From NCBI GenBank assembly GCA_964016885.1, contig OZ024743.1, positions 330,088,001 to 330,152,000 of the forward strand: DNA of 64,000 nucleotides, written 5' to 3'. The notes under the pieces were generated by a model. It was not told where the DNA came from and made no database searches. It saw only the letters and a list, made by a program, of their open reading frames with translations. A program made the translations under genes and the position numbers. The DNA comes from Eledone cirrhosa. Its lineage: Eukaryota. Below, piece after piece: positions 10,607-64,000 of this stretch (position 1 is its first letter; every line of letters begins with the position of its first letter).

Positions 10607-10797
10607 TTTATCCCGGGTTCAATCGGGGGTAACCACAGTAAGTAAGGTATTCAATACATAGCAGAGTATAAATATTTAATATAGAAATGTCTTCTACAGG
10701 ACTAGAAATGTTTCATTCAGGAAAAATCATCAGAAAGCCCTGATGATTTCTCTCGAATGAAACAGTTCTAGTACTGTAGAAGCCATTTCTATAATAA
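10606..10797. mobile_element. PLE pLTR fold-back with hammerhead core (CUGAUGA at 10740)
   Basis: Homologous to 50298-50489, with inverted arms ~10675-10797 and TA flanks. Confidence 0.7.
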
Positions 10798-29751: not shown

Positions 29752-30935
29752 GCTCTCAAGCAACCACAAACATAGTTTTAAAAATGCTGCATTAGCTAAT
29801 ACAACATCCTTGGCTGAAACAATTAATAATTATAGAAAAAAGAATATCGATTACAACCTGTCCTGGAGTGTGCTCAAAAGGGCCACCCTTATCAAAATAA
29901 CAGATATGAGTGTAGATTATGCTCCCAGGAACTTTTTGAAATAATGAAATCTAAGGATATCCTATTAAATAAGCGACAAGAATTAATTATATCTTGCAAT
30001 CATAGAATTAGAAGAACCTTCAAATATTATAAACCTAATTAATATACACCTTACACTTATATTTTACATATTATTATAATTAGTTTTTTTAAATTTAGTT
30101 AACCTATAATTAGTACTTTACTACAGAGAACTTCATAATTTTATTTCCCTCTTACAGCTCTCTTTTCCTAAAATTAATACCTAAAAGTATACCTATAAAT
30201 TAATTTAATTTCCTGTTATGCTTCTAAATTCCTTGTAGTATATATAAGATTGGTATTTCTCACTACTACCCTTATCCCAAAGTTTTATTTTCCTTCGTGT
30301 TTAACAATATTCTTTAATAACATCTAATTCTTATTTATCACATCCATATGAATTAATATAAATTTATCCCTATAAGTATACATATCAATTAATTTAATTT
30401 CTTGTTATAGATCTAGATTCTAGTTTAAATAAGATTGGTATTTCTCACTAATACCCTTACCCTAAAATTTTACTTTCCTTCGTTTTTAACATTCTTTAAT
30501 AACATCAAATTTTCGTGTACCCTTCACCGGCTTAACCTCTTTTCATCCCCAAAGTATTCTTTTCATTCAAAGTATTCTTTCCATTCAAAACATAAGTCTG
30601 CACCCCTCTACCCCTAAATTAAATTTCTACTACTACTATTCTATCAACTTGACCTCTTACTACTTTTCTATTGGTCAATTCAAAACCTGTTCGCAAATAG
30701 ACCTATTATATTAAATCTTTGTTGGTTTTTTTCAATAAACAAATCTCATCATTTCTGAAGACAGCATATATATGTGAAGGTATGTATATCTCCTCTGATA
30801 GTTTGTAATATTTTTACATAGATCTGTATGATATACATACCAACACACATATATATGCTAGAAACGATCGTAAAATGATGAATTGTTTAATATAAGGAAC
30901 TTGTTCTTTGTTTTTATTCATTGTTTTTATTAATT
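29752..30935 (+). mobile_element. 5'-truncated Penelope-like element: frameshifted GIY-YIG endonuclease C-terminus (29752-30042) plus 3' UTR/pLTR with hammerhead
   Basis: Translates as NHKHSFKNAALANTTSLAETI..YNLSWSVLKR / PYQNNRYECRLCSQELFEI..LLNKRQELIISCNH, like the PLE endonuclease at 55120. Ends in (TA)n. Confidence 0.85.
30746..30881 (+). ncRNA. Type I hammerhead ribozyme (PLE pLTR), long stem II, palindromic stem III
   Basis: UCAUCAUUU-CUGAAGA-(AGCAUAUAUAUGUG...CACAUAUAUAUGCU)-A-GAAAC-GAUC-GUA-AAAUGAUGA. Confidence 0.85.
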
Positions 30936-30957
30936 TATATATATATATATATATATA

Positions 30958-33840
30958 TATGTATTAAAATATAGAGAAAAATACTGCAAGTAGCACATGG
31001 TAACATGTAATAAAATAAGTCCCTCATCAGTGATTTGCCGAAGATCATAGATATTTCATTGCATTAAAAATCATATATCTCACTTCGGTGCAATAATAAC
31101 CAAAATAAGTTATTAGGACAATTAAAACGCGTAAAGCGAGTGAGACAGGAGAACAACAGAAAATATAGCATACCGTAGGGGAGAAACAAGCTTCAAAAAT
31201 TATTCTGTTTAGCATAAGCTAGGTGAATATATGAGCGCTTAGAGAATAGTACCAACACGAACGAAGGCTATTGAGCAGAGAGAGAAAAAATAGCGTTCGT
31301 GAGTGCAGGATGAAATGAAGAGAAGAGGGAGAAAAACAGTGAGTGAGTGAAAGTGTGAGGAAGAGTTAACGGACAAGACAGAGGGGGAGAAACAGAGAGA
31401 ATGGGGGAACAGTAAGAGAGAAAAAAACACAGAATCGCAGTGGTAAATATATGTATTAAAATATAGAGAAAAATACTGCAGGTAGCACATGGTAACATGT
31501 AATAAAATAAGTCCCTCATCAGTGATTTGCCGAAGATCATAGATATTTCATTGCATTAAAAATCATATATCTCACTTCGGTGCAATAATAACCAAAATAA
31601 GTTATTAGGACAATTAAAACACGTAAAGCGAGTGAGACAGGAGAACAACAGAAAATATAGCATACCGTAGGGGAGAAACAAGCTTCAAAAATTATTCTGT
31701 TTAGCATAAGCTAGGTGAATATATGAGCGCTTAGAGAATAGTACCAACACGAACGAAGGCTATTGAGCAGAGAGAGAAAAAATAGCGTTCGTGAGTGCAG
31801 GATGAAATGAAGAGAAGAGGGAGAAAAACAGTGAGTGAGTGAAAGTGTGAGGAAGAGTTAACGGACAAGACAGAGGGGGAGAAACAGAGAGAATGGGGGA
31901 ACAGTAAGAGAGAGAGAAAAAAACACAGAATTGCAGTGGTAAATATATGTATTAAAATATAGAGAAAAATACTGCAGGTAGCACATGGTAACATGTAATA
32001 AAATAAGTCCCTCATCAGTGATTTGCCGAAGATCATAGATATTTCATTGCATTAAAAATCATATATCTCACTTCGGTGCAATAATAACCAAAATAAGTTA
32101 TTAGGACAATTAAAACGCGTAAAGCGAGTGAGACAGGAGAACAACAGAAAATATAGCATACCGTAGGGGAGAAACAAGCTTCAAAAATTATTCTGTTTAG
32201 CATAAGCTAGGTGAATATATGAGCGCTTAGAGAATAGTACCAACACGAACGAAGGCTATTGAGCAGAGAGAGAAAAAATAGCGTTCGTGAGTGCAGGATG
32301 AAATGAAGAGAAGAGGGAGAAAAACAGTGAGTGAGTGAAAGTGTGAGGAAGAGTTAACGGACAAGACAGAGGGGGAGAAACAGAGAGAATGGGGGAACAG
32401 TAAGAGAGAGAGAAAAAACACAGAATCGCAGTGGTAAATATATGTATTAAAATATAGAGAAAAATACTGCAGGTAGCACATGGTAACATGTAATAAAATA
32501 AGTCCCTCATCAGTGATTTGCCGAAGATCATAGATATTTCATTGCATTAAAAATCATATATCTCACTTCGGTGCAATAATAACCAAAATAAGTTATTAGG
32601 ACAATTAAAACGCGTAAAGCGGGTGAGACAGGAGAACAACAGAAAATATAGCATACCGTAGGGGAGAAACAAGCTTCAAAAATTATTCTGTTTAGCATAA
32701 GCTAGGTGAATATATGAGCGCTTAGAGAATAGTACCAACACGAACGAAGGCTATTGAGCAGAGAGAGAAAAAATAGCGTTCGTGAGTGCAGGATGAAATG
32801 AAGAGAAGAGGGAGAAAAACAGTGAGTGAGTGAAAGTGTGAGGAAGAGTTAACGGACAAGACAGAGGGGGAGAAACAGACAGAATGGGGGAACAGTAAGA
32901 GAGAGAGAAAAAAAACACAGAATCGCAGTGGTAAATATATGTATTAAAATATAGAGAAAAATACTGCAGGTAGCACATGGTAACATGTAATAAAATAAGT
33001 CCCTCATCAGTGATTTGCCGAAGATCATAGATATTTCATTGCATTAAAAATCATATATCTCACTTCGGTGCAATAATAACCAAAATAAGTTATTAGGACA
33101 ATTAAAACGCGTAAAGCGAGTGAGACAGGAGAACAACAGAAAATATAGCATACCGTAGGGGAGAAACAAGCTTCAAAAATTATTCTGTTTAGCATAAGCT
33201 AGGTGAATATATGAGCTCTTAGAGAATAGTACCAACACGAACGAAGGCTATTGAGCAGAGAGAGAAAAAATAGCGTTCGTGAGTGCAGGATGAAATGAAG
33301 AGAAGAGGGAGAAAAACAGTGAGTGAGTGAAAGTGTGAGGAAGAGTTAACGGACAAGACAGAGGGGGAGAAACAGAGAGAATGGGGGAACAGTAAGAGAG
33401 AGAGAAAAAAACACAGAATCGCAGTGGTAAATATATGTATTAAAATATAGAGAAAAATACTGCAGGTAGCACATGGTAACATGTAATAAAATAAGTCCCT
33501 CATCAGTGATTTGCCGAAGATCATAGATATTTCATTGCATTAAAAATCATATATCTCACTTCGGTGCAATAATAACCAAAATAAGTTATTAGGACAATTA
33601 AAACGCGTAAAGCGAGTGAGACAGGGGAACAACAGAAAATATAGCATACCGTAGGGGAGAAACAAGCTTCAAAAATTATTCTGTTTAGCATAAGCTAGGT
33701 GAATATATGAGCGCTTAGAGAATAGTACCAACACGAACGAAGGCTATTGAGCAGAGAGAGAAAAAATAGCGTTCGTGAGTGCAGGATGAAATGAAGAGAA
33801 GAGGGAGAAAAACAGTGAGTGAGTGAAAGTGTGAGGAAGA
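30958..33840 (-). mobile_element. Tandem array of ~5.8 near-identical 492-497 bp non-coding units, retrozyme-like, one permuted hammerhead per unit, flanked by (TA)n
   Basis: TCATCAG (CUGAUGA on minus) recurs at 31024, 31516, 32012, 32507, 33004, 33500. Units differ mainly in (AG)n/A-run length. The minus strand is pyrimidine-rich with no credible ORF. TA repeats lie on both sides. Confidence 0.85.
31019..31119 (-). ncRNA. Permuted, pseudoknotted, kink-turn-containing hammerhead-like ribozyme (first of six copies)
   Basis: Minus strand reads GUCC..UUGCA CCGAAG U GA GAUAU A/UGAUU UUUAA UGCAA U GAA AUAUC UAU GA U CUUCGG CA AAUCA CUGAUGA G GGAC. Predicted cleavage between 31074 and 31073. Confidence 0.75.
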
Positions 33841-35956: not shown

Positions 35957-36515
35957 GGGATAACAACTTATCGTTATACGTAATCCAGTTAGAGGTGGTG
36001 AGTGCTCTGTGTCGTGGATAGTTTTAACGTACAGCTTTTTTTGACTCAACAAGATGCTTCCATAGTTATGCAGAGAGTTCGCTGTAATTTCTATGCAGGT
36101 TATACTTGGATTAATAATAGTTAAAGAATGAAGATTAACTTGGTTGGCTGTACAATAAGGGGCTTTATTTAAAGTACTGACAATTGTTTCGTTGATCAGG
36201 TGTGTCTAGAGTTCGTTAATCGCTTGAGGTTGCGTCAATCGATCTCCAATACATTATTCACCTCTGGTCAACACATCAGAGTATGTAGATATGAAAATAG
36301 TTCACTCGAGGCAAGACTTATATAGAAAAATACGCTATTTTTCTCTATAAGTCTTGCCTCGAGTGAATTACTTTCATATCTACGTACTCTGATGTGTTGA
36401 CCAGAGGTGAATAATGTATTGGAGATCGATTGACGCAACCTCAAGCGATTAGCGAACTCTAGACCCACATGATCAACGAAACAATTGTCAGTACTTTAAA
36501 TAAAGCCCTTATTGC
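35957..36515 (-). mobile_element. PLE pLTR (minus) with inverted partial copy, giving two hammerheads (36174-36284 minus, 36384-36494 plus)
   Basis: ~36152-36330 and ~36335-36515 are inverted repeats, and the region is homologous to 58810-59150. GUACU-CUGAUGU-GUUGA..UCAAC-GAAAC-AAUU-GUC-AGUAC. Confidence 0.85.
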
Positions 36516-39170
36516 AGTGTGCACCTTTTCGAGAGCACCGTGATCATCTGTCCCGTTAGCGGCCATCAGCACGATGTAATCTGCGTAGGCCAGGTCCGTC
36601 ACCACGACCCCTCTCCCGATTTCTACGCTCAGGTAATCCCGCAGCGCTGTGTTGAGAGTGTAGTCAATGGCGTAGTTAAAGAGAGTTGGCGATAGCGCAC
36701 ACCCCTGCCGAACACCGATCCCAACATCGAACGACTCCGTCTCCCCACCATAGATCCTCAATCGAGCCCGAGTCAACCGGTAGTAGCCTTGTATGAGATG
36801 AAGCAGCTTCACTGGGATGCCGTCCGCCTCCATTATACGCCATAGGGCTTCCCGATCACCCGAGTCGAAAGCAGCTGCAAAGTCGATGAAGCAGAGGACG
36901 GTAGGCTCTTGATGTACCCACCGTTGTTCCAGGACACGCCGGAGAAGGAAGATTTGATCAACGCACCCCCTCCCCGGAGGGAAGCCGCCCTGAGAAGGAC
37001 GGGTACGGACATCAACAGAAGAATTGCGAAGGTTTTGGCAGCAACGTCAATTAAACTGATACCCCTGTAGTTGGAACACAGTTTCCTGTCGCCTTTTTTG
37101 AAGAAGGATAGGAGAGTTGCCTCGCTCCAGTCACCAGGGAACCGCTCCGTCGCCCACACCGAGGAGAAGACTCGATGGAGCCAAGCTGCGAAGAAATCAG
37201 GCTCGGCCTTGTAGACCTCAGCTGGAACGCCATCTTCGCCCGGCGCCTTGTTGTTCCGGAGATGTGTCAGGACACTACGTACCTTCTCGACCGTTGGAGG
37301 GGTAGTGCTGCACCCGTATTCTTCTCCGGAAGGCTGCACGTAGGTTGGCGTGGATGGTGGAGGGTGGTTGAGCAGCTCGGAAAAATGGTCCCGCCATCGG
37401 ACTAGCCGGTCATTAAAATTGGTAATAACCGCCCCGTTCCGATCACAGATCGTCTCGCTGATACGCGTACTGCTTCGGCTGGCCCACTTCACCAGTTGGT
37501 AGAGCTTGCGCGAGTCACCACAGGCTGCTTCCCTCTCTGTCTGCCCCGCAAATTCGCGCCAGTCTGCATTCCGATCGGCCCTAATAGCCCGAGCTGTACA
37601 ACGTCGGAGATCTCGAAGATTGGGTGCACCCTCGAGTTGGGCCACTCTCGCCCTCTCCGCGAGTTCAAGAGTGCCGCTGGAGATCCAGTCCCGATGGCGT
37701 CTTCGGGTCGACCGAGATGTTCCCTGGCCACCTCAACCGTCGCCGCTCTGAGCGCGTTCCACTCCTGCTCCGGTTGCTGTTCCACTTCGTTACTCAGCAT
37801 TTGGAATCGGTTTCGCAACTCTAGCCGGAAAGCATTTCCAGCATCGAGCTTGAGTCGCGAGATGTCGATCCTTTTCTGGCCGTTGGGAGGTGGTTTCGCC
37901 CGCAGCCGCAGACGAAGGATTGCTCGAACAAGAGTATGGTCTGACTCATGCTCACAGCCCATATCAGCCCCCCGATACGCACGCGAGTCCATCACTGAGC
38001 TGGCCCACCAAGATCTGACCAGGATGTAGTCAATTTGATTGGCCGTTCTTCCGTCATTGGCTTTCCACGTGACGAGATGACGCCAAGGATGTAGGAACCG
38101 GGTGTTGATGACGATAAGACGATTGGCATCCGCGAAGGACACGAGCCGTTCACCATTGTCACAGCGTGCGCCTAGGGTGAAGCGTCCTAGTATATGCCGT
38201 GTTGTATCATCAGCCGCGCATTCCAGTCCCCAGCGACAATGAGAACATCACTGGAGGGGACGCCAGCCACGGTTATTTGGAGATGGGCATAGAACTGCGT
38301 CTTGTCCGCCTCGTCCGCATTGAGTGTGGGAGCGTAGACGGCAATTACGCTGACGTTGGAGATTTGACCCTTCAATCGAACCAGCGCGATTCGGTGTGAG
38401 ATCGGCTGCCACGCCAGCAGAGCCGCTTGCGTGTCGAGGCTGAGCGCTACAGCGACCCCGTGAAGGCCACTGTTGTCACTCACGCCACTATGGTATACGT
38501 GGTAGGAGATGTCCTCGCCAGGAACTTTGATCGGAAGATTACCAACATCGGGGAGCGAACTTCTGATAGGCAAGCGACACTAACGCAGTACCTGTGCAGA
38601 GCCTTCATTGTAAGTGCCTGGACACCGTCGTCACGAAGTGTTCGGACGTTCCAGCACGCCACCCTCAATTCCTTCCTTCGTCTGAAGAGCGGGACTACTG
38701 CGGGAGTAGTCTGTAGAGCCATAGCGGTAGGAGCGCTGTTACTTTGCATTGCGTTCGTAGCAGGAAGGCAATTCGTATTCATAGTTCTTATTTGTAGGAT
38801 TCATGGAAGAAGTGTCATGGGAGTAGTGAATTCACAAGCGGTCCCCCAAAAAACCCGAACGAGGGGAAAAAACGTCCTGTTTGCCGCAGATTCTCCACAG
38901 ACGCAGGGACAGAAACGACCCGAAGCCGCCGGTTACCGGAACATACACCTCTTGGATTTTCACCAGAGCCCCTTTTGCCGGGTTGCGACCCTAATACCGC
39001 TGGGTGCCAGACCAATCTGCCTTGGGTAGCCTTACCAGGAACCGAAGTTCCCGACGGCATAACCCTGACCCGTTGCCACTGCCCTGCCACGTTGAGGAGG
39101 GGTTGGACTTTAGCTCACACCTATGCAGGTTTAGCTGGCCTCCTCCAAGGTATATCTCACCTTTGGTGAT
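36515..39170 (-). mobile_element. RTE-clade LINE: 5' UTR, APE endonuclease and RT to just past the YADD-like motif; frameshifted, 3' end missing
   Basis: ACWNVRTL, LSEVR, YAPT, GDWNA, NQIDYILV, SDHTLV, KAPGEDG, NYRGISL, GVRQGCALSPTLFN, LAYADY. Confidence 0.95.
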
Positions 39171-44984: not shown

Positions 44985-46900
44985 ATACCTATTGTACAAC
45001 ATATGTACACAATGTAGTGAATTTATTGTACTACAGATGTACATAATGTAGTGAATTTATTGTACTACAGATGTACATAATGTAGTGAATTTATTGTACT
45101 ACAGATGTACATAATGTAGTGAATTTATTGTACTACAGATGTACATAATGTAGTGAATTTATTGTACTACAGATGTACATAATGTAGTGAATTTATGGTA
45201 CTACAGATGTACATAATGTAGTGAATTTATTGTACTACAGATGTACATAATGTAGTGAATTTATTGTACTACAGATGTACACAATGTAGTGAATTTATTT
45301 CACTACAGATGTACACAATGTAGCGTTTTATTGTACAACAGTTGTACACAATGTAGTGAATTTATTGTACTACAGATGTTCACAATGTAGGGAATTTATT
45401 GTACTACAGATGTACACAATGTAGTGAATTTATTGTACAACAGATGTACATAATGTAGTGAATTTATTGTACAACAGTTGTACACAATGTAGGGAATTTA
45501 TTGTACACCAGATGTACAAAATGTAGTGAATTTATTGTACAACAGTTGTTCACAATGTAGTGAATTTATTGTACAACAGATGTACACAATGTAGTGAATT
45601 TATTGTACACCAGATGTACACAATGTAGTGAATTTATTGTACTACAGATGTACACAATGTAGTGAATTTATTGTACAACAGTTGTATACAATGTAGTGAA
45701 TTTATTGTACAACAGTTGTACACAATGTAGTGAACTTATTGCACACCAGATGTTCACAATGAAGTGAATTTATTGTACTACAGATGTACACAATGTAGTG
45801 AATTTATTGTACAACAGATGTACATAATGTAGTGAATTTATTGTACAACAGATGTACACAATGTAGTGAATTTATTGTACAACTGTTGTTCACAATGTAG
45901 TGAATTTATTGTACAACAGATGTACACAATGTAGTGAATTTACTGTACAACAGATGTACACAATGTAGTGAATTTATTGCACACCAGATGTACACAATGT
46001 AGTGAACTTATTGTACTACAGATGTACACAATGTAGGGAATTTATTGTACACCAGATGTACAAAATGTAGTGAATTTATTGTACAACAGTTGTTCACAAT
46101 GTAGTGAATTTATTGTACAACAGATGTACACAATGTAGTGAATTTATTGTACACCAGATGTACGCAATGTAGTGAATTTATTGTACTACAGATGTACACA
46201 ATGTAGTGAATTTATTGTACAACAGTTGTACACAATGTATTGAATATATTGTACAACAGTTGTTCACAATGTAGTGAATTTATTGTACTACAGATACACA
46301 CAATGTAGTGAATTGATTGTACTACAGATGTACACAATGTAGTGAATTGATTGTACTACAGATACACTCAATGTAGTGAGGCACAGAATTCTTGATAGAG
46401 TGCGTAGTTTGGAGATCAGAGAGTCACTGCTACTTCTCCAAATTGAGAGTTCACAGCTCCGATACTATAGACATGTGGTTAGAATGTCCCTGAAGAAATC
46501 ACTGGACAGATTTTATGGGCAAAACGAACCGGCAGGAGACGCAGAGGTTGACCCCGAGCAAGATGGTTGGATAACATCCATGAACTTGGCTGGTCTCGCT
46601 TGGGGATCGAGCCGGATAAATTGGAAACGGTTGCTTCTGACAGGAGCTGCTGGAAGGAGTATTTGATGACTCTGTCCCCACGACCCACTCAAGAATAAGT
46701 AGGGGAAGAAGAAGACGAAGGGATGTACACAGTGGTGAATTTATTGTTCAAAAGATGTATACAATGATGAATTTATTGTTCAACAGATGTACACAATGGT
46801 GAATTAATTGTTTAACAGATGTACACAATGGTGATTTTGTAAAACGTTTGTATATAAAGTAGAGAATATATTGTTTAACAAATGTACACAACATAATACA
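44985..46900. repeat. 34-bp minisatellite (~40 copies) interrupted by an RTE 3' fragment at 46376-46720
   Basis: Unit AATGTAGTGAATTTATTGTACTACAGATGTACAC. Confidence 0.95.
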
Positions 46901-47236
46901 TGTATTGTTTAATAAATATATACATTTTAGCGAATATATCATTAGATAGGTGTATAAAATTGAATATATACTGGAGTTTACAATTGTTATAGTAGACAAA
47001 TGCTACCGAATTATACAAAGATGAAAGTAATTTAGAAAATTTAGGATTAACATAATAATTAGGAAGAGAGAAATAGTGAAAATTTGCGAAAGAAAAAAAA
47101 ATCACATACACATACACATAAACAAATACACACTAACGTGCACACACACATATATGTATATATATATTTCCTTCTTCCTCTCTTTCTGCTGCTTAAACCA
47201 TTTTGTTTGTTTACCCTAGCGTCCCCTTTATTTACG

Positions 47237-47339
47237 TGTCCCAACGACTTTTTTTAGCCGTCGGTCGCACTAATCTGAGGTATATGGCCTTTAATGCGAC
47301 GAAATGCCTACGACGGCTGGATGGCCACTGATGAGGACA
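47237..47339 (+). ncRNA. Permuted kink-turn hammerhead-like ribozyme, copy 1
   Basis: UCGCA CUAAUC U GA GGUAU A/UGGCC UUUAA UGCGA C GAA AUGCC UAC GA C GGCUGG AU GGCCA CUGAUGA G GACA. Predicted cut after 47284. Confidence 0.75.
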
Positions 47340-47593
47340 AACTTTTTCATATGTAACCCATTTGCAGCGCCGCAGCTCCATTATTATCATATTTACACAT
47401 ATATTTTTTCCTCCGCTGCCACCAGTCTGTTTCGTTCTTTGTGTCTTTACCCTTTCTAGCAGTCTCTCTCTGTTAGCCTCTTCCTCACCTTTCACTCACT
47501 CACTCTCTGTCACTACCTCTCCTCCTCCCCTTTCTTCCAGTTTGACCTGTCCACAATCCTTTTCTCGCGGGCACTTGGCCAAGCCGGTATGAA

Positions 47594-47638
<45 letters not shown>

Positions 47639-47876
47639 GCGACTTCACAGAACTTATGTTTACCGAATTCGCAGACCAGACCCCTTCTTCCTCCCGTTAG
47701 ACCTGTGCGAAATTCCTTCCTTGCTCACATTTCAACCAGGTTTGATGGTCTTTATTCTCTCGTTCATGATTCCACCGAATTTATATTCATAGAAATCTGG
47801 GACTTGTTTCCTTCTTCCTCTCTTTCTGCTGCTTAAACCATTTTGTTTGTTTACCCTAGCGTCCCCTTTATTTACG

Positions 47877-47980
47877 TGTCCCAACGACTTTTTTCTAGCC
47901 GTTGCTCGCACCAACCTGAGGTATATGGCCTTTAATGCGACGAAATGCCTACGACGGTTGGATGGCCACTGATGAGGACA
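47877..47980 (+). ncRNA. Permuted kink-turn hammerhead-like ribozyme, copy 2
   Basis: Same layout with outer helix CCAACC/GGUUGG. Predicted cut after 47925. Confidence 0.75.
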
Positions 47981-48022
47981 AACTTTTTCATATGTAACCC
48001 ATTTGCAGCGCCGCAGCTCCAT

Positions 48023-48101
<79 letters not shown>

Positions 48102-50297: not shown

Positions 50298-50486
50298 GTT
50301 ATTCCGGGTTGAATCGGAGGTAACCACAGTAAGTAAGGTACTCAATACATTGCAGAGTATAAAAGTTTTAATATAGATGAGATTCTACAGGACTAGAACT
50401 GTTTCATTCTTTAGAAATCATCAGGATTCCTGATGATTTCTAATGAATGAAACAGTTCTAGTCCTGTAGAATCTCATCTATATTAA

Positions 50487-50641: not shown

Positions 50642-50701
50642 AAATGAATTGTCTTCAAATTCTTGATATGAGGGAAAAAAAACAGTTACCTGAGACGACT
50701 G

Positions 50702-51031
50702 AATGGTGATCTAGTAAAATTAAAGAACTCGACCGGCATTTTAGTGCACGCAGACATGACTAACAGCCTGTACGATATGGATAGAGTAACTTATGATGAT
50801 TTGATAACCAGAGAACTTAGGAAAAGCTACAGAAAAACTACACGGGTCAACCTGGATTTAATTAACACGGAGGCCAATAGCGTCAGGATTAAACTGGGTA
50901 TTGAGGATAAAACCGAACCCTTCCATTCTAGAACCCTGACGATTTTGCTGAAGGACCACAAATTGAACTATGAATCATTAAGACCTGTCAGGCTGATAGC
51001 CCCTTTAAATTTAATTTATAATAAATTGTAA
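50702..51031 (+). pseudogene. Fragment of PLE reverse transcriptase N-terminal region
   Basis: VHADMTNSLY..Y..LI...SYRK...IN.EA...KLGIEDK..LLKDHKLNY..PVRLIAP resembles the PLE motifs ADKT..Y and LKDHK.NF..P.RLI.P. Confidence 0.75.
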
Positions 51032-55119: not shown

Positions 55120-55590
55120 TGCAGTTGCAGGAAGCCGGATGAATGCCCATTGCAGGGTAAATGTAACACAAAATCTGTCGTTTATGAGGCTAAGATAACG
55201 CCAGTAATCAACAACCAGCCAGCCAGGAGTGAGCGATATGTCGGTATGACCCAGGACAGGTTTAAAACCAGATTTTACTCACATGTCGCTTCTTTTAAGC
55301 ACTCCGATAAACGAACATCAACGGCCCTCGCAAGTAAGGTATGGGATCTCAAGGATAGTAACATCCCGTACTCTATTGATTGGTCTATATTAGACCATTC
55401 GAGGGAGTACCAAAGGGGCACAAAGAATTGTTCTTTGTGTACCACAGAAAAGTATAGGATTTTGCTAAACTTGAGAGCCACTTCCGCTTGCCTTAACTCA
55501 AAGACTGAGATCTTCAGATGCTGTCCTCATCTGAAATCGCATCTGATCTGTAACTGGATTGACACTCCTATGAGAAATCAACCGCCTTGA
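55120..55590 (+). CDS. GIY-YIG endonuclease domain of a 5'-truncated Penelope-like element (Cys-rich linker, Neptune-like)
   Basis: CSCRKPDECPLQGKC..SVVYEA..RYVGMTQDRFKTRFYSH..SF..TALA..IDWSIL..CSLCTTEK..LNSKTEIFRCCPH. Confidence 0.9.
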   Translation, partial: CSCRKPDECPLQGKCNTKSVVYEAKITPVINNQPARSERYVGMTQDRFKTRFYSHVASFKHSDKRTSTALASKVWDLKDSNIPYSIDWSILDHSREYQRGTKNCSLCTTEKYRILLNLRATSACLNSKTEIFRCCPHLKSHLICNWIDTPMRNQPP

Positions 55591-61789: not shown

Positions 61790-61990
61790 TTCATCATCAT
61801 CAATGCTATCACAGTCGAACATTCCTGTCAGCCACTCCACAATTCACGATTTTCCATTGCATCTGGCAACTTCTCCATACCGAGGTTTCTATCGTCCGAG
61901 AGTTGATCAATAAATGCTCAAGCAGATTTTCATCCACTGTGTCTCCTGTGAGTTGGTTCCCACAATAGTAACTTGTATATAACTTCCTGA
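61790..61990 (-). mobile_element. RTE LINE 3' end with (GAT)n tail, continuous with the 39-bp satellite
   Basis: LLLWEPTHRRHSG*KSA*AFIDQLSDDRNLGMEKLPDAMENRELW then GATGATGATG. Confidence 0.75.
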
Positions 61991-64000
61991 GTTGGTTCCC
62001 ACAACAGTAACCTGTGCATAACTTCCTGAGTTGGTTCCCACAACAGTAACTTGTATATAACTTCCTGAGTTGGTTCCCACAACAGTAACTTGTATATAAC
62101 TTCCTGAGTTGGTTCCCACAACAGTAACTTGTGTATAACTTCCTGAGTTGGTTCCCACAATAGTAACTTGTATATAACTTCCTGAGTTGGTTCCCACAAC
62201 AGTAACTTGTGTATAACTTCCTGAGTTGGTACCCACAATAGTAACTTGTGTATAACTTCCTGAGTTGGTTCCCACAATAGTAACTTGTATATAACTTCCT
62301 GAGTTGGTTCCCACAACAGTAACTTGTATATAACCTACTGAGTTGGTTCCCACAATAGTAACTTGTATATAACCTTTTGAGTTGGTTCCCACAATAGTAA
62401 CTTGTGTATAACTTCCTGAGTTGGTTCCCACAATAGTAACTTGTATATAACTTACTGAGTTGGTTCCCACAACAGTAACTTGTATATAACCTACTGAGTT
62501 GGTTCCCACAATAGTAACTTGTATATAACTTCCTGAGTTGGTTCCCACAACAGTAACTTGTATATAACCTACTGAGTTGGTTCCCACAATAGTAACTTGT
62601 ATATAACTTCCTGAGTTGGTTCCCACAATAGTAACTTGTGTATAACTTCCTGAGTTGGTTCCCACAATAGTAACTTGTATATAACTTACTGAGTTGGTTC
62701 CCACAACAGTAACTTGTATATAACCTACTGAGTTGGTTCCCACAATAGTAACTTGTATATAACTTCCTGAGTTGGTTCCCACAACAGTAACTTGTATATA
62801 ATCTACTGAGTTGGTTCCCACAATAGTAACTTGTATATAACCTGCTGAGTTGGTTCCCACAATAGTAACTTGTATATAACCTGCTGAGTTGGTTCCCACA
62901 ATAGTAACTTGTGTATAACTTCCTGAGTTGGTTCCCACAATAGTAACTTGTATATAACTTCCTGAGTTGGTTCCCACAACAGTAACTTGTGTATAACTTC
63001 CTGAGTTGGTTCCCACAACAGTAACTTGTGTATAACTTCCTGAGTTGGTTCCCACAATAGTAACTTGTATATAACTTCCTGAGTTGGTTCCCACAACGGT
63101 AACTTGTGTATAACTTCCTGAGTTGGTACCCACAATAGTAACTTGTGTATAACTTCCTGAGTTGGTTCCCACAATAGTAACTTGTATATAACTTCCTGAG
63201 TTGGTTCCCACAACAGTAACTTGTATATAACCTACTGAGTTGGTTCCCACAATAGTAACTTGTATATAACTTGCTGAGTTGGTTCCCACAATAGTAACTT
63301 GTGTATAACTTCCTGAGTTGGTTTCCACAATAGTAACTTGTATATAACTTCCTGAGTTGGTTCCCACAACAGTAACTTGTATATAACCTACTGAGTTGGT
63401 TCCCACAATAGTAACTTGTATATAACTTCCTGAGTTGGTTCCCACAACAGTAACTTGTATATAACCACCTGAGTTCGTTCCCACAATAGTAACTTGTATA
63501 TAACTTACTGAGTTGGTTCCCACAATAGTAACTTGTATATAACCTACTGAGTTGGTTCCCACAATAGTAACTTGTGTATAACTTCCTGAGTTGGTTCCCA
63601 CAATAGTAACTTGTATATAACTTCCTGAGTTGGTTCCCACAACAGTAACTTGTGTATAACTTCCTGAGTTGGTTCCCACAACAGTAACTTGTATATAACC
63701 TACTGAGTTGGTTCCCACAATAGTAACTTGTATATAACTTCCTGAGTTGGTTCCCACAACAGTAACTTGTATATAACCTACTGAGTTGGTTCCCACAATA
63801 GTAACTTGTATATAACCTACTGAGTTGGTTCCCACAATAGTAACTTGTATATAACCTACTGAGTTGGGTCCCACAATAGTAACTTGTGTATAACTTCCTG
63901 AGTTGGTTCCCACAATAGTAACTTGTATATAACTTCCTAAGTTGGTTCCCACAACAGTAACTTGTGTATAACTTCCTGAGTTGGTTCCCACAACAGTAAC
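61950..64000. repeat. 39-bp minisatellite (>50 copies, runs off the window)
   Basis: Unit GAGTTGGTTCCCACAA(T/C)AGTAACTTGT(A/G)TATAACTTCCT. Confidence 0.97.

Follow-up and report, generated by a model that had tools for sequence, protein, structure and literature searches.

A candidate non-circular hammerhead ribozyme with a split block C in high-copy tandem repeats of Eledone cirrhosa

The motif studied here lies at positions 47237-47339 of a 64,000-nucleotide stretch of the Eledone cirrhosa genome (NCBI GenBank assembly GCA_964016885.1, contig OZ024743.1, positions 330,088,001 to 330,152,000 of the forward strand; denoted the window, from whose first letter positions are counted). An original prediction, made from the letters alone, had described this focal copy as a hammerhead core with its strands in a knotted order, for which it knew no description. 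The locus raises the question of whether such an arrangement is a ribozyme, how it is built and what carries it. We favor the reading, to which we assign a probability of roughly 0.7, that it is a self-cleaving hammerhead of the non-circular group (block orders SGC, CSG and GCS) within non-coding, retrozyme-like tandem repeats derived from the 3' end of a Naiad-type Penelope-like element (PLE).

Strand order and helices of the motif

The complete core, with its CUGANGA and GAAA strands, is present in all eight window copies in the order cleavage site, GAAA, CUGAUGA, as originally predicted for two copies at 47 kb and six at 31-33 kb. Eckert et al. (PMC10085705) distinguish three hammerhead blocks, S, G and C; in these terms the order is SGC, outside the circular orders CGS, GSC and SCG of types I, II and III. 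The topology is not without precedent, since type SGC (HRIMA-1 and the SGC variant) exists: five such ribozymes cut in vitro, at the predicted site and at 0.007-0.19 per minute, and they need four helices, all confirmed by compensatory mutants (PMC10085705). The claim of a multiply pseudoknotted hammerhead that type I, II and III descriptors would miss is supported, the novelty of the order is not. Rfam gave no match at gathering score in the window and, at E<=10 around the motif, none to a hammerhead family. A canonical order restored across tandem neighbors was ruled out by inspection; neighboring units give CSG or GCS, which are still non-circular.

Sequence and covariation define the strand order a-b-c-d-S-G-i-C-k (Table 1), with normal stems I and III. 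Stem II is formed by the upstream strand c and the strand preceding GAAA (helix c-g) and not by block G with block C directly; the GAAA and CUGAUGA strands have at most one stem II pair between them. A four-way junction with 0-1 unpaired bases, placed directly above A9.G12 on the tandem G.A pairs, unites helices a-k and c-g, hairpin b and the 10.1/11.1 level. An outer helix, P4 (strands d and i), links the distal ends of stems I and II. What had been noted earlier as a possible further short pairing is helix a-k; the 7-bp hairpin that connects this helix to the stem II substitute, and so completes the junction, had been missed. The 3' strand of P4 precedes stem I, as in type SGC, and its partner has moved to the front together with the 5' strand of stem II. 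The circular order i-C-c-d-S-G is common to SGC, CSG and the present form, and the opening point alone differs; judged from sequence, the chain is opened here within block C, between A9 and position 10.1 or 10.2.

To evaluate the helices we used an alignment drawn from loci L001-L110 and the window. From 136 core matches, 72 distinct sequences retained the upstream arm; six with large indels or long U runs were dropped, L014 was swapped for an identical window copy and four ends were trimmed, leaving 66 copies of about six subfamilies. Selection was by sequence motif, not by pairing; the core, GAAA included, belongs to the selection pattern and H17 does not. Overall, 92.5% of cells were paired, compared with 79.0% after shuffling (a value reached in 0/500 shuffles) and 29-47% in slid controls, and two-sided change was found at 23 of 34 pairs (reached in 2/500 shuffles). 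Pairing and two-sided changes were 97.6% and 3/5 pairs for stem III, 96.7% and 5/6 for stem I, 95.4% and 5/6 for P4, 93.7% and 4/7 for hairpin b and 91.5% and 3/5 for helix c-g; position 10.1/11.1 was paired in 84.8%, and helix a-k in 76.1% when counted in one fixed register, its best runs in family A being 4-5 bp long. Across subfamilies stem I is nearly fully rewritten (UGGCC/GGCCA, UGAUU/AAUCA, UUGUC/GACAA), as is P4 (CCAACC/GGUUGG, CCGAAG/CUUCGG, CUGGGG/CCCCAG), and the 15.2/16.2 pair changes from U-A to C-G in seven copies. Together these data demonstrate the anatomy of the motif and its covariation; the covarying helices named in the original prediction keep their signal in the larger alignment.

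The core is conserved. GAAA occurs in 66/66 copies (as part of the selection pattern) and H17 is A, C or U in 65/66, so that the NUH rule is kept; stems I and III flank this site, together with A15.1-U16.1. The AUA triplet, earlier called invariant, is found genome-wide in only 30 of the 66, next to 29 AUC, 5 GUA, 1 GUU and 1 GAG. In the UUUAA linker the final two A are invariant and the first two U are present in at least 90%. A strict grammar built on four required helices (stems I and III, the stem II substitute and the outer helix) was matched by seven of the eight window copies, whereas 100 dinucleotide shuffles of the window gave no match.

Does the motif hold the direct stem II of published SGC ribozymes? 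Pairing at that place reached 37.6%, compared with 38.5% in shuffled sequences, and the published SGC descriptor, re-coded in Python, recovered 0/66 copies, or 1/66 when U11.1 was allowed; together these results rule out a direct stem II between blocks G and C. That descriptor asks for two or more direct stem II pairs in addition to G10.1-C11.1, and its underlying model assumes uninterruptible blocks (PMC10085705). A hammerhead whose stem II has a single pair is known to be active (PMC3088659). The motif would work like a type-SGC hammerhead without the direct stem II by which that family is recognized. R10.1-Y11.1 may start stem II, with strand c supplying the rest of the helix. Direct 10.1/11.1 pairing is possible in 56 of 66 copies (G-U 40, G-C 13, A-U 3), and the branch point is ambiguous: window-type copies permit either one, the alternative branch occurring in family B1, in part of family C and in the focal copy, where G at 47264 is able to pair with C11.1. 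A sister subfamily (L070 2870-2979, L079 2276-2385) has A10.1-U11.1 where family A carries G-C with one base missing, which suggests a compensated deletion at the junction.

Cleavage of the focal copy is predicted 3' of A17 (47284); this position, and that at 31074 on the minus strand, agree between the original prediction and our re-mapped motif. In run X4 (run type unrecorded) one 489-nt contig of depth 2.2 covers 31079-31564, its ends falling short of two consecutive predicted cuts by 5 and 1 nt; since contigs cannot show RNA ends, we mention it as a curiosity only. Among the sequencing runs searched, no RNA data set was listed as containing the sequence.

Carrier repeats and their relation to Naiad elements

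Searching the 3.0-Gb genome with a window-based pattern gave 4,650 exact matches and none with the reversed control; a looser pattern gave 6,214, with one in the control. The carrier units are non-coding, 490-640 nt long and 5'-truncated, they form partial tandems, and each has one ribozyme; the family A insertion in the window has no open reading frame (ORF) of at least 130 aa with ordinary composition. (TA)4 lies within 120 nt of the core in 67 of 85 array-terminal copies, compared with 15% of random positions, and insertion 3' ends are mostly 43-102 nt beyond the core. Counted by eye among the first 100 matches listed, inverted same-family pairs no more than 2 kb apart were head-to-head in seven cases and tail-to-tail in none. 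Together these data demonstrate the copy number and the insertion pattern, which is that of PLEs, while the organization is that of non-long-terminal-repeat (non-LTR) retrozymes. A metagenome scan yielded eight pattern matches, none with the helices by eye, and viral contigs yielded none. At 10690-10780 and 50380-50470 the window also has minimal type I hammerhead-like motifs (CUGAUGA, UGAAAC and a short stem III) in two inverted, head-to-head pairs ending in (TA)n, which are another PLE-type short repeat; a similar inverted pair lies upstream in L040 and L005.

Craig et al. (PMC8557442) described Naiads as lacking canonical hammerheads and marked eight of them with a split 'half core', and reported (TA)n targets, 5' truncation, partial tandems and inverted 5' copies. 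These features are common to Hydra and other PLE clades, and so are not diagnostic of Naiad. The consensus 3' ends in the supplement were examined by eye, covering places 26-50 of 62 for CTGATGA, 1-28 of 30 for CCGAAAC and some further passages. Seven ends (Naiad_Obim, Naiad_Ovul, Naiad_Aacu, Naiad_Anas, the record before Aacu, one in part 12 and one in part 19) parse cleanly as a-b-c-d-S-G-i-C-k and two more parse partially; five others (parts 13-16) read as clean type CSG, with a direct stem II and the interaction helix. The ends showing either form come from several phyla. None of the seven permits a 10.1-11.1 pair (the bases are A/C, C/C or U/C). The end of strand a is the partner of 10.1, an arrangement least clean in the two Octopus records, and a G at the start of strand c is the partner of Y11.1, which places the branch point directly above A9.G12. 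The two Octopus ends and family B have in common the unpaired loop UUAUUUUA and a UGA linker; this shared unpaired sequence argues for common descent. The same fold at Naiad ends probably explains why these elements seemed to be without the ribozyme of their relatives. On balance we lean towards the wider view that Naiads across phyla, and their derivatives, carry non-circular hammerheads, of which one widespread form would be a permutation excluded by the three-block model, opened between A9 and 10.1, with the junction on the core and the 10.1 purine possibly coming from the upstream strand.

The coding parent was sought in several ways. Naiad ORF features (an N-terminal GIY-YIG, and a reverse transcriptase with a DKA motif) were found neither in the units nor in a linked ORF; an 82-aa Naiad remnant used as protein query gave no match; Pfam has no useful model for the PLE ORFs examined; and neither 20 stretches of 10 kb nor 60 loci of ~3.4 kb showed a long shared upstream extension into coding DNA. 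Hydra-type ORFs near several copies were ruled out as the parent, having the (TA)n target in common with the repeats and a type I-like core of their own at the 3' ends inspected (L032, L033), as was a Neptune-like family (1,789 motif matches), 12/12 of whose fetched 3' ends were without the motif. Either element may be the present mobilizer; the Hydra-type ORF at L032 is near-intact. Hydra-type ORF fragments were also detected by tblastn in the window (29842-30045, 50672-51004 and 55120-55530). In the Neptune-like 3' ends (L201-L212) no CUGANGA core was seen, though Neptune elements are said to carry hammerheads; these ends may hide another variant or another ribozyme. At the 3' ends of decayed Naiads (L120 6316-6436, L154-L157, L159, L162) we observed a UUGAUAA core, exact in five of seven, with U3/A8 replacing C3/G8 and a hairpin between blocks S and G, possibly a further variant.

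Elsewhere in the window, minisatellites occupy 44990-46379 (34 nt, 41 copies) and 61949-64000 (39 nt, at least 52 copies), and 36462-39026 on the minus strand holds broken reverse transcriptase and endonuclease frames, judged from translations to be like those of long interspersed nuclear elements.

Table 1. Coordinates of the ribozyme motifs, their strands and the carrier insertions in the window
Feature	Positions	Strand	Description
Family A insertion	47166..48026	+	5'-truncated unit plus one full 641-nt unit; TA-rich microsatellite flanks; non-coding
Strand a (UGUCC)	47237..47241	+	partner is strand k, 3' of the core; closing arm of the four-way junction
Hairpin b	47242..47263	+	7 bp, U-rich loop; second junction arm; two mismatches in the focal copy
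Strand c (UCGCA)	47265..47269	+	5' strand of substitute stem II
Strand d, outer helix P4	47270..47275	+	equivalent of the Eckert stem I/II interaction helix; weakened in the focal copy
Block S	47279..47289	+	stem III strand GGUAU, A17 at 47284, stem I strand UGGCC
UUUAA linker	47290..47294	+	connects distal stem I to distal stem II
Block G	47295..47308	+	stem II 3' strand UGCGA, C11.1, G12-A13-A14, stem III strand AUGCC
Strand i, outer helix P4	47315..47320	+	pairing partner of strand d
Block C	47323..47339	+	stem I strand GGCCA, CUGAUGA (47328-47334), G10.1, strand k
Competing 8-bp helix	47256..47318	+	47256-47263 with 47311-47318; perfect in the focal copy, two G.U in the family
Second family A ribozyme	47877..47980	+	family-consensus type, intact P4; CUGAUGA at 47969; predicted cut after 47925
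Family B1 array	30955..33840	-	5.8 units of ~496 nt, 99% identical, 5'-truncated, (TA)n flanks
Family B1 ribozyme, last copy	31019..31119	-	CUGAUGA at 31030; predicted cut after 31074
Family B1 ribozyme	31511..31611	-	CUGAUGA at 31522; predicted cut after 31566
Family B1 ribozyme	32007..32107	-	CUGAUGA at 32018; predicted cut after 32062
Family B1 ribozyme	32502..32602	-	CUGAUGA at 32513; predicted cut after 32557
Family B1 ribozyme	32999..33099	-	CUGAUGA at 33010; predicted cut after 33054
Family B1 ribozyme, first copy	33495..33595	-	CUGAUGA at 33506; predicted cut after 33550

Proposed mechanism and alternative explanations

From hammerhead chemistry, we expect the standard core to form, with G12 and G8 catalyzing in-line attack at H17, giving a 5'-OH and a 2',3'-cyclic phosphate. 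As CUGAUGA and strand k are transcribed last, we propose that cleavage would be delayed until the whole motif is made. Multimeric transcripts would be cut into monomers of 492-497 nt in family B and 641 nt in family A, possibly circularized by a host ligase, as in retrozymes. A PLE reverse transcriptase with a GIY-YIG endonuclease might then copy the monomers in trans into (TA)n sites, which would yield 5'-truncated partial tandems and inverted 5' copies.

Several observations weigh against this picture. Because all 66 copies belong to about six related subfamilies, the cells greatly outnumber the compensatory events that are independent. The pair-count method, whose cells are sequences and not events, itself warns that related sequences can outscore shuffles. 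Helix a-k requires two registers, and 10 of 25 family C copies carry G11.1 opposite G10.1. The linkers between P4 and stem III are just 3-4 and 6-7 nt long, despite the distance in the known 3D fold; Eckert et al. acknowledge similar strain for some SGC RNAs (PMC10085705). In family A the competing helix produces a stable nested alternative that lacks stems I and III, and it dominates the nested minimum-energy structure (-35.4 kcal/mol in the focal copy, -29.9 in the 47.9-kb copy). The focal copy is also the sole window copy failing the strict grammar: its outer helix is CUAAUC/GGCUGG, with one mismatch and two G.U, the CCAACC/GGUUGG once ascribed to it belonging to the 47.9-kb copy, 641 nt downstream. 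The two differ by five substitutions, every one within the motif, which weaken the outer helix and perfect the competing one; a 14-nt diagnostic word of the focal copy occurs twice genome-wide, and the variant looks private. As for the origin, the Naiad parses were made by eye and not computed, no coding element bearing this ribozyme was found in the genome, and the Octopus-Naiad ribozyme motif is absent from it. All Naiad-like hits are decayed, the longest open frame among the 90, 150 and 66 matches listed being 298 aa. The 3' ends of these remnants hold the different S-G-C motif with the U3/A8 core, whose seven examples are 88% paired (slid controls 20-52%) yet equal to shuffles, which is no covariation support.

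These points bear on three alternatives. In the first, the ribozyme is as described, while the repeats have an origin other than Naiad or are at present mobilized by Hydra- or Neptune-type PLEs; we regard this as unlikely, if worth serious attention. The Hydra- and Neptune-type elements are young, abundant and (TA)n-inserting, and include the near-intact ORF and the many Neptune-like matches given above, while among the matches listed the Naiads are decayed and the window arrays, with 99% identical units, are young; against this, the inspected Hydra-type 3' ends have their type I-like core, the fetched Neptune-like ends have no motif, and the fold matches Naiad ends only. A Naiad origin and another PLE as mobilizer could both be true.

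The same helices might instead act in a dimer or across neighboring tandem units, a second copy relieving the strain of three crossing helices. The tandem units and the short P4-stem III linkers would fit this, as would the dimeric action known for minimal Penelope-like hammerheads. Weak monomer cleavage was also shown in axolotl (PMC7229834). No palindromic stem forces a dimer, however, core spacing is fixed in all subfamilies, many copies are solo, published Naiad ends have one motif each, and the SGC constructs of Eckert et al., of ~80 nt with a single motif, cut during transcription (PMC10085705); we judge the dimer improbable. Least credible to us is a fold that is real and no longer, or not mainly, catalytic, such as a reverse transcriptase recognition structure with the core as a relic. 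G11.1 in family C, the competing fold in family A, the clustering of the five private changes inside the motif and the insertion 3' ends, which lie past the core and not at the cut, could be so explained, but core nucleotides and the NUH rule persist while every helix turns over, and by eye the core is retained in Naiad ends of distant phyla. A self-cleaving hammerhead of Naiad descent remains the reading that we prefer.

Comparison with known hammerheads and retroelements

The original prediction in part under-called the finding. The strand order is that of type SGC and is not new; the construction of stem II, which differs from published SGC, and the genomic setting look new, and the Penelope-type high-copy setting and the Naiad link are the more important part. 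Literature searches, with subscription journals thinly covered and a prior report possible, turned up neither genome-encoded hammerheads of type SGC or CSG, nor a block C that is split, nor Naiad ribozymes; for hammerheads in cephalopods they gave ecology papers. In the available part of a November 2026 paper (PMC13725137), variant hammerhead forms are referenced only to Eckert et al. and two others. If our reading is true, a known kind of organism would for the first time, bar one weak bacterial candidate, be seen to encode non-circularly permuted hammerheads in its genome, and these would occur in thousands of copies with natural covariation, as abundant genome-encoded animal ribozymes rather than a metatranscriptome rarity. 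The hammerhead core would then tolerate opening of the chain right after A9, which bears on structure, search descriptors and engineering.

With type SGC the motif shares the S-G-C block order, the full core, three mutually crossing core helices, a short stem I-stem II linker and an extra helix between the distal parts of these two stems. The published form has a direct stem II of 4-5 bp between blocks G and C and an extra helix finished 3' of the core, whereas here the 5' strand of stem II and one extra-helix strand lie upstream of the cleavage block and are brought in via the four-way junction. The setting differs as well: the repeats are genomic and number thousands, whereas the SGC RNAs in the available part of PMC10085705 come from metatranscriptome contigs only, and none from the genome of a known organism. 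Type CSG, known from only two metagenome sequences (PMC10085705), has an identical circular strand order, with c and d ahead of the cleavage block; in CSG block C runs on into c, whereas here the chain is opened there and block C comes last.

The Naiad clade (PMC8557442) resembles the repeats in its insertion features and in having the same fold ~60-100 nt from the 3' end; unlike Naiads, the window copies encode no protein, and we found none of the repeats joined directly to a Naiad ORF. Naiads are among the most abundant invertebrate retroelements, and their seeming lack of a ribozyme has been used to argue that hammerheads may merely parasitize such elements. If the fold is what we propose, it gives a testable answer to their seeming ribozyme absence relative to the other endonuclease-bearing Penelope-like clades.

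Animal non-LTR retrozymes (Cervera and de la Pena 2020, PMC7229834; Li et al. 2026, preprint 10.64898/2026.07.22.740005) are likewise non-coding tandem units of a few hundred bases with one hammerhead each, present in thousands of copies, for which a PLE origin and mobilization have been proposed. In the available parts of these sources all described retrozymes carry a type I hammerhead, whereas the present repeats do not. As earlier surveys used type I or III descriptors, the motif was invisible to them; if our reading holds, retrozyme surveys that use type I models undercount.
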